Source: a virus (Duplodnaviria; Heunggongvirae; Uroviricota; Caudoviricetes). Taken from it: a DNA stretch of 22,551 bases. The DNA lies in the IMG/VR virus record IMGVR_UViG_2534681934_000013; one strand, given 5' to 3'. A program made the position numbers and the translations under genes. The notes below the pieces were generated by a model. That model was not told where the DNA came from. It saw nothing but the letters and a program-made list of their open reading frames with translations, and searched no databases. How positions within the stretch are numbered: position 1 is the stretch's first letter; each line of letters starts with the position of its first letter. Of the stretch, positions 12,826 through 13,215 are shown in pieces.

Positions 12826-13170
12826 ATGAAAAAGGTATTGATTGCAGCACTTATTTCCGGTGTGTCTTTTGGCGCTTTTGCACAGCAGGGTGGTTTCCAG
12901 GGGCCAGAAGCAGAGCGTTCAACAGTAGCGCAGGCAAAAGAACTGAAGGATGATGCATGGGTTATCCTTGAAGGGAGCATCGTTAAAAAAGTGGGTGATG
13001 AACGTTATGAGTTTCGTGACAATAGCGGGACAATTGTCACGGATATTGATGACAGCGTATGGGCCGGGCAGAATGTTTCTCCGAAAGACAAAGTAAGAAT
13101 TGAGGGTGAAATTGATAAAGACCTGAGCAGTGTTGAAGTTGATGTAAAGGCACTGAAATTATTAAAGTAA
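12826..13170 (+). CDS. YgiW/YdeI (BOF, OB-fold) family periplasmic protein with signal peptide
   Basis: Signal peptide MKKVLIAALISGVSFGAFA-QQ; mature part (AQAKELKDDAWVILEGSIVKKVGDERYEFRDNSGTIVTDIDDSVW...VEVDVKALKLL) matches the YgiW/YdeI pattern; SD aaagagga. Confidence 0.75.
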   Translation: MKKVLIAALISGVSFGAFAQQGGFQGPEAERSTVAQAKELKDDAWVILEGSIVKKVGDERYEFRDNSGTIVTDIDDSVWAGQNVSPKDKVRIEGEIDKDLSSVEVDVKALKLLK

Positions 13171-13185
13171 CCGCCCCTGCTTGTT

Positions 13186-13215
13186 AAGCCCGTCTTACTG
13201 ACGGGTTTTCTGTTT
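13186..13215 (+). terminator. intrinsic terminator after the ygiW-like gene
   Basis: cccgtc-ttact-gacggg followed by ttttctgttt. Confidence 0.5.

Follow-up and report, generated by a model that had tools for sequence, protein, structure and literature searches.

A prophage-borne ygiW-like gene joined to the 3′ end of hokW: probable promoter-less cargo of a type I toxin locus

The DNA analysed here (the window) is a 22,551-nucleotide stretch of a tailed-phage genome (Caudoviricetes; IMG/VR record IMGVR_UViG_2534681934_000013), in which a ygiW-like coding sequence occupies positions 12826-13170 on the plus strand, starts with ATG and encodes a protein of 114 aa. An earlier note on this DNA had described the product as a YgiW/YdeI-family protein with a signal peptide and an OB fold, and profile and structural comparisons bore out the family and the fold, making the membership of this protein in the YgiW/YdeI (BOF) family near certain. 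The Pfam BOF profile PF04076 was matched with an E-value of 1.9e-33 (115.1 bits, cut-off 25.8) and the NCBIfam profile NF033674 with 136.8 bits (cut-off 35), and the YgiW/YdeI subfamily profile TIGR00156 was passed narrowly, with 112.3 bits against a cut-off of 108.15. The score obtained with the YdeI equivalog NF007471 was 64.8 bits, below its cut-off of 179, and therefore the protein is not a YdeI orthologue. The sequence of E. coli YgiW deposited as PDB 1NNX matched it with an E-value of 3.5e-29. Moreover, an AlphaFold model built with 17 homologues presented the five strands of an OB fold, with block-mean pLDDT values of 90-98 from residue 31 on, and the best structure retrieved by Foldseek was again 1NNX (target-normalised TM-score of 0.91, 53% identity), followed by the OB folds of RPA, Ten1 and Stn1.

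At the N-terminus, two lysines (K2K3) precede a hydrophobic core that spans residues 4-13, and the AFA|QQ site would be cleaved after residue 19, which would place the signal peptide codons at 12826-12882 on the plus strand. These features, recognised by a crude sequence-level reading and by alignment with the signal peptides of homologues, point to Sec-type targeting to the periplasm and to a predicted mature product of 95 aa, approximately 10.5 kDa and pI 4.6; at its N-terminus, the protein is about 14 residues shorter than its closest relatives. YgiW (PDB 1NNX; VisP in Salmonella) likewise has a BOF OB fold and a Sec signal peptide, with a GGFxGP motif past the point of cleavage, but presents two GGF(S/Q)GP motifs where the window protein has one. 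The 1NNX chain alone aligns over 94 residues of the 114-aa window protein, and full-length YgiW has about 130 aa. The genetic settings also differ: the window gene is prophage-borne, fused to hok and has a GC content of 43.7%, whereas the YgiW gene is chromosomal and adjoins qseBC. YdeI (OmdA) of Salmonella and E. coli belongs to the same family as the window protein, being periplasmic, porin-binding and associated with antimicrobial-peptide resistance (PMC6370654, citing Pilonieta 2009).

The phage-borne ygiW-like gene is already known and annotated. RefSeq names its product "NirD/YgiW/YdeI family stress tolerance protein" (WP_000756596.1), and the same gene corresponds to L0136 of phage 933W (99.1% protein identity), annotated as "similar to hypothetical YgiW and YdeI proteins" with mokW, hokW and sokW as neighbours, to H0152 of VT2-Sakai, and to phrog_1230 (PHROG 1230) in PHROGs, where it is listed without function. 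The literature searched by gene, locus and protein names returned no functional study of the phage-borne gene, which, taken alone, is ordinary, already annotated prophage cargo.

The 1.2 kb between positions 12400 and 13600 was 100% identical to chromosomes of E. coli O157:H7, O26, O103, O111, O121 and O145. In O157:H7 PV15-279, the locus lies within a defective lambdoid prophage beside rspB and ynfA, with a truncated integrase, two IS1203 copies and no annotated immunity or replication genes, and the gene order is DUF4014, DUF551, hok, ygiW-like gene, 90-aa ORF, DUF968, rusA and Q-like gene. Since no repressor or replication genes are annotated from the integrase remnant to the Q-like gene, only local promoters, such as that of hok, can drive the cassette in this copy. 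In the window, the two IS1203 copies flank the prophage remnant at about 9059-10850 and 21750-22551. Among 5426 complete E. coli genomes, 549 carried the ygiW block, in one to four copies each and 661 places in total, and 515 of these 549 genomes presented the same nin-region arrangement as the window. The cassette is carried by Stx2a phages of the 933W type and by related prophages in the principal EHEC serotypes.

Upstream of the ygiW-like gene lies a hok/sok locus. The hok gene (12551-12706, plus strand; 51 aa), a Hok/Gef family protein gene in RefSeq, matched Pfam HOK_GEF with an E-value of 1.1e-22 and is contained in a mok frame of 70 aa (12494-12706, plus strand). The sok antisense RNA was placed at 12432-12502 on the minus strand by transferring the coordinates of sokW from 933W (L001 2937-3007), since the alignment of 933W with the window had no net gaps and an offset of 9495; the Rfam sok model scored 113.5 bits at 12382-12556. 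A weight-matrix scan revealed a hok promoter-like site, TTTGCG-17-TAGAAT, at 12347-12375 on the plus strand (–10 element TAGAAT at 12370-12375), with a predicted start near 12378 and a score within the top 0.009% of window sites, and a counterpart, TTGGCG-17-TAGAAT, was detected by the consensus scan in a hok-only phage (L003). The RNA starting there was predicted to form a folded hok mRNA domain at 12379-12771 on the plus strand (–168.3 kcal/mol, z –6.6), in which the 5′ end GCGGGUGCUUGAGG (12380-12393) pairs with the 3′ end CCUCAACGCACCCGC (12756-12770), like the tac/fbi closure of hok mRNAs; in the fold of 12378-12780, the closure arms were 12379-12394 and 12756-12771. A Hok ORF, a sok antisense RNA and the long-range 5′-3′ closure of the mRNA were thus all found at this locus, but an intrinsic terminator directly after the 3′ pairing element was lacking in the window, in 933W and in two diverged alleles of the cassette (L006 and L010).

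The comparison with related loci defined the limits of the inserted block. Three hok-only phages, mEp460_ev081, vB_EcoS-689R5 and Stx2_EH1910 (L003-L005), carry the same hok and the same DUF968-rusA-Q genes without ygiW, and their homology to the window breaks exactly at 12778 and resumes at about 13541-13554. Similarly, in thousands of E. coli hokD-type loci the match ends at 12778 or a few bases earlier. On the other side, 933W shares positions 12242-13217 with the window at 97.3% identity and diverges completely at 13218, two bases past the tail of the ygiW terminator. These breaks delimit a ygiW-specific block of 439 bp (12779-13217, plus strand), composed of a 47-bp leader with a Shine-Dalgarno site, the coding sequence and a terminator, with a GC content of 43.7% versus 52.5% in the hok block and 52.9-54% downstream. 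The low GC content, together with its absence from related phages that share the same hok/DUF968 backbone, supports the foreign-cargo character of this block.

In the three hok-only phages, the sequence ...CTTAACC|CGCTTCGGCGG... spans the break and leads into a T-rich tract (GGGTTTTTGTTTTT in L003 and L005, TTTTTTCC in L004), and the terminator scan of L003 called AACCCGCTTCGGCGGGTT with its T run (TTTGTTTTT) an intrinsic terminator at L003 2914-2931. In the window, the left arm of this hok terminator ends at the break (...TTTACC|ATACTGAAAATG...), and consequently the terminator was destroyed; it is also absent from 933W and from the diverged alleles L006 and L010. The left junction of the ygiW block lies, therefore, inside the former hok terminator and, since the closed hok fold ends at 12771 and is kept in the fused transcript, 7 nt past the hok RNA domain. 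In fact, the only terminator-like site detected in 12200-13700 was that at 13186-13215, so that none separates hok from ygiW. A hairpin at 12714-12737 was considered as a hok terminator and rejected, as it lacks a U-tract and also occurs in hok-only loci whose terminator is a separate one farther downstream. The slot just past the hok terminator accommodates variable cargo (window 12779 onward; L004 3022-3486; L003 and L005 2917-3323), consisting in vB_EcoS-689R5 of a different 130-aa ORF that starts with the signal-peptide-like MKKLVLVAGVMIATVM, and in mEp460 and Stx2_EH1910 of rem-like genes.

The ygiW-like gene had been described in the earlier note as a self-contained moron located between hok and a DUF968-like gene, with its own Shine-Dalgarno site and an intrinsic terminator right after it. 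Both of these signals were found inside the ygiW block: the Shine-Dalgarno site AAAGAGGA at 12812-12819 on the plus strand, 6 nt before the ATG and kept as GAAGAGGA in the diverged alleles L006 and L010, and the intrinsic terminator AAGCCCGTC-TTACT-GACGGGTTT with the T-rich tail TCTGTTTGT at 13186-13215 on the plus strand (9-bp stem at 13186-13208), which probably serves both hok and ygiW. The upstream neighbour was also as described, but DUF968 is not directly adjacent, as a 90-aa ORF (13292-13564; phrog_1212, listed without function) intervenes and abuts the start of DUF968, placed at 13566 by RefSeq and at a GTG at 13512 by the ORF finder. The best promoter-like site of the region, TTGTAC-17-TACAAT (13214-13242), begins in the tail of the ygiW terminator and faces this 90-aa ORF. 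Another promoter-like site, TTAACA-18-AATAAT, lies on the opposite strand at window 13187-13158, overlapping the terminator and the 3′ end of ygiW, and would give an antisense RNA; it agrees with the consensus at 10 of 12 positions, its –35 hexamer is weaker in 933W (TTAGCA), and it is probably a chance match in AT-rich DNA.

The promoter that a self-contained unit would need was sought in the 119-nt untranslated gap between hok and ygiW, in which just 47 bp of the ygiW block precede the ATG. A consensus promoter scan of 12200-13700 detected no site upstream of ygiW in 12707-12825 and, since it had also missed the hok promoter, a weight-matrix scan of all window sites was used, which recovered the latter. 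The best weight-matrix site in 12680-12825 was TTTACC-16-TTGAAT at 12773-12800, within the top 0.03% of window sites. If this site were active, ygiW would be an autonomous moron expressed independently of hok from a promoter in 12707-12825, and its own Shine-Dalgarno site, own terminator and low GC content would agree with such a unit, as would the extended –10-like TGTTAATTT in alleles L006 and L010. However, the candidate site spans the junction without the near-invariant –11 A and has a different sequence in L006 and L010, the stricter consensus scan of the gap was empty, and only 47 bp of the block are available before the ATG. No convincing promoter of its own could thus be recognised for ygiW, and autonomy becomes still less attractive in view of the distribution of the gene: it was never found apart from hok in the 549 genomes or in three genomic contexts, and stand-alone genes of the sister clade are preceded by about 250 bp of AT-rich DNA with a direct repeat. 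We therefore regard autonomous expression, for instance from a weak or activator-dependent promoter, as unlikely.

Consequently, the description as a self-contained moron stands as regards foreign cargo that is absent from related phages and brings its own terminator, and fails as regards its own promoter and its independence from hok; "promoter-less cargo fused to hokW" is the best reading. Like phage morons in the sense of Hendrix and colleagues, such as lambda bor and lom, the ygiW block is a low-GC insert with its own terminator, placed between genes that are contiguous in relatives. It differs from them in having no detectable promoter of its own and in using a neighbouring type I toxin gene, the terminator of which it replaces.

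The association with hok was strict. The query covering the hok-ygiW junction (12650-12950) was found at full length in 549 E. coli genomes, the same number as for the ygiW block, which means that the ygiW-like gene was not seen without hok. The hok-ygiW pair occurs in three contexts: the nin region, the attR-proximal end of 933W and a non-prophage site. In the nin-region context, represented by the window and by allele L010, the pair lies in the window between the DUF551 gene and the DUF968-rusA-Q genes. Phage 933W (L001) has the same junctions and hokW/sokW, but its cassette is located near attR and converges on the preceding gene in the record. In the non-prophage context, found in a few Escherichia assemblies (L006-L009), the cassette is placed between a cytochrome c peroxidase gene and a ParA-family ATPase gene, the latter followed by a tRNA synthetase gene, and in L006 a cytochrome b562 gene lies beyond the peroxidase gene; we take the ATPase and tRNA synthetase genes to be mrp-metG. 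This allele shares 81% protein identity and, over 12335-13170, 87% nucleotide identity with the window, has hok directly upstream with no terminator between, and in L006 occupies positions 3512-4345; its similarity to the window stops with the BOF stop codon. The L010 allele shares 82% identity and is located in a nin region like that of the window. The 47-bp leader, the absence of a promoter, the missing hok terminator and the constant presence of hok together indicate that the mobile and transcriptional unit is hok/sok plus ygiW.

The alleles L006 and L010 differ from the window by approximately 12-16% at the nucleotide level, and the pairwise dN/dS values among alleles were 0.17-0.23 at dS values of 0.37-0.55, demonstrating that the protein is under purifying selection. 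The decayed state of the PV15-279 prophage, with its truncated integrase, two IS1203 copies and lack of immunity and replication genes, is what would surround a non-functional passenger decaying neutrally; nevertheless, these dN/dS values at dS of up to 0.55, an intact ORF at least 99% identical in 503 records and the presence of the same gene in functional Stx phages make such decay scarcely credible.

Outside the cassette, the closest clade comprises BOF genes of 127-130 aa (P0047, P0029), with about 61-62% identity in a MAFFT alignment. These genes are not linked to hok; they follow a tail-fibre assembly gene in E. coli and Salmonella prophages, and other genes of this sister clade were found in a Pantoea chromosome and beside an ISL3 element. 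In a scan of one genome per species, the relatives among the matches listed (Rahnella, Ewingella and others) shared at most 51% identity. BOF genes were captured by temperate phages at least twice, once in the hok-fused form and once at the tail-fibre end. In the approximately 250 bp of AT-rich DNA upstream of the stand-alone genes, the direct repeat TTAAG-N6-TTAAG is placed 62-71 bp before the start codon in all four contexts compared (L011, L038, L041 and L042), conserved though the surrounding DNA has diverged; in L011 the single copy observed, at 4938-4953, compares with 0.03 expected. This repeat resembles a PmrA/BasR- or QseB-type box and, if it is one, would place prophage cargo under host two-component control. 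Its position falls outside the 47 bp retained in the hok-fused gene and, in the window, TTAAK-N6-TTAAK did not occur above chance and was absent upstream of the ygiW-like gene.

These observations suggest the following sequence of events. The BOF gene would have lost its own regulatory region and become joined to the 3′ end of hok within the hok terminator and, as the join removed this terminator, transcription from the hok promoter, starting near 12378, probably continues through ygiW and stops at 13186-13215, producing a two-gene mRNA of about 840 nt from which ygiW would be translated through its own Shine-Dalgarno site. This co-transcription is suggested by the missing terminator together with the missing promoter. 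In the fold of the hypothetical 839-nt transcript ending at the ygiW terminator, the hok RNA domain remained unchanged. The BOF protein would then be exported by Sec, cleaved after AFA19 and act in the periplasm with outer-membrane proteins, raising tolerance to cationic peptides, peroxide or metals, so that envelope-stress tolerance would be a lysogenic-conversion function. Taken as a whole, from promoter-less cargo co-transcribed with hokW to an exported protein that confers envelope-stress tolerance on the lysogen, this chain leans, in our judgement, towards the probable.

The fused arrangement has a consequence for hok itself. In the classical hok model, the mRNA becomes translatable when its 3′ end, which includes the pairing element, is trimmed away. 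In the fused RNA, the 3′ pairing element would lie about 445 nt short of the RNA end, with a stable terminator hairpin in between. Such a distant end is hard to reconcile with activation by 3′ trimming, yet HokW still acts as a toxin-antitoxin system (PMC8621323), which raises the question of how hok is activated when its 3′ pairing element sits far from the RNA end. As to expression, uninduced Sp5 lysogens contain a stable hokW mRNA (PMC8621323), and co-transcription would thus give steady expression of ygiW in the lysogen, which bears indirectly on the expression that the earlier note required. The searched text of the same source does not mention ygiW and gives no transcript sizes.

The same source also reports that HokW aids the release of phage Sp5 and that HokW/SokW cloned on plasmids forms a complete toxin-antitoxin pair (PMC8621323). 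The first of these results, together with a hok-BOF linkage kept across about 12-16% nucleotide divergence and in three contexts, would be accommodated by a three-part module in which the periplasmic protein modulates Hok toxicity or Hok-assisted phage release; the second runs counter to it, as the pair is already complete without a third member. Moreover, dependence on the hok promoter is a simpler explanation of the linkage, and in the junction search the match of thousands of further E. coli hok loci, hokD and similar ones, stopped at the junction, with no BOF gene behind it. No BOF family member is known to act on small membrane toxins, which also counts against this role, and we hold it to be quite improbable.

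The function proposed in the preferred reading, that of promoter-less cargo of hokW, relies on analogy with the tested family members. YgiW, YdeI and SipA are located in the periplasm, interact with outer-membrane proteins by binding them and are required for cells to withstand antimicrobial peptides, H2O2 and Cd (PMC6370654), in agreement with the earlier note, which had linked the chromosomal paralogues to resistance to antimicrobial peptides and peroxide. Moreover, cross-complementation occurs between YgiW and the more distant SipA, and the latter binds antimicrobial peptides directly (PMC6370654). From these roles we infer that the window protein may contribute to envelope-stress tolerance. 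Family members have also been reported to bind OmpF, OmpD or OmpA, and a model in which they plug the pore has been put forward (PMC6370654), which, in combination with the capture of BOF genes by temperate phages on at least two occasions, would fit superinfection exclusion or receptor masking, with the protein binding porins or OmpA from the periplasmic side and blocking competing phages. Nevertheless, tolerance to host-derived stress accounts for the same facts, and this alternative appears very improbable.

The preferred reading, in which ygiW depends on the hok promoter, would provide a way of expressing cargo without a promoter of its own, by taking the place of the terminator behind a type I toxin gene with a stable, constitutively made mRNA. 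It would also bear on the published hokW-sokW deletion of Sp5, in which a kanamycin cassette replaces the locus directly upstream of the ygiW-like gene (PMC8621323): if hok and ygiW are co-transcribed, this deletion may be polar on ygiW, and the phenotypes assigned to HokW would need to be rechecked.

The cassette may have appeared in clinical data as well. In an Irish case-control and genome-wide association study from 2025, "ygiW_2" and "group_5720" (mokC-like) were jointly associated with haemolytic uraemic syndrome, with an adjusted odds ratio of 5.49 (95% CI 1.9-18.6), and were presented by the authors as two interacting genes, their adjacency not being noted (PMC11950266). As the cassette encodes both mok (12494-12706) and an accessory second ygiW (12826-13170), this pair is probably the hokW-ygiW cassette. 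The association may simply mark the phage type or the lineage; regarding the pair as one cassette makes the signal interpretable and testable, either as a phage-type marker or as a real fitness factor. A bolder proposal is that the stable constitutive hok mRNA was co-opted as a carrier for a promoter-less periplasmic stress protein, forming a single module that protects the lysogen envelope or tunes HokW at phage release, and that this cassette stands behind the pair associated with the syndrome and contributes to fitness or virulence beyond its linkage to Stx2a phages; we offer it as a speculation to which we attach little probability.

As regards other RNA genes of the prophage, no sRNA overlapping the hok-ygiW locus is described in a prophage sRNA preprint. 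Rfam detected the prophage sRNA STnc100 at 17871-18043 on the plus strand (104.7 bits against a gathering score of 47), an sRNA that has been connected with the PasD sRNAs of pathogenic E. coli in a 2026 preprint. It lies about 0.8 kb 3′ of two tRNA genes (16849-16921 and 17025-17098, plus strand), which are located 3′ of the Q-like gene and are annotated by RefSeq as Ile and Arg.
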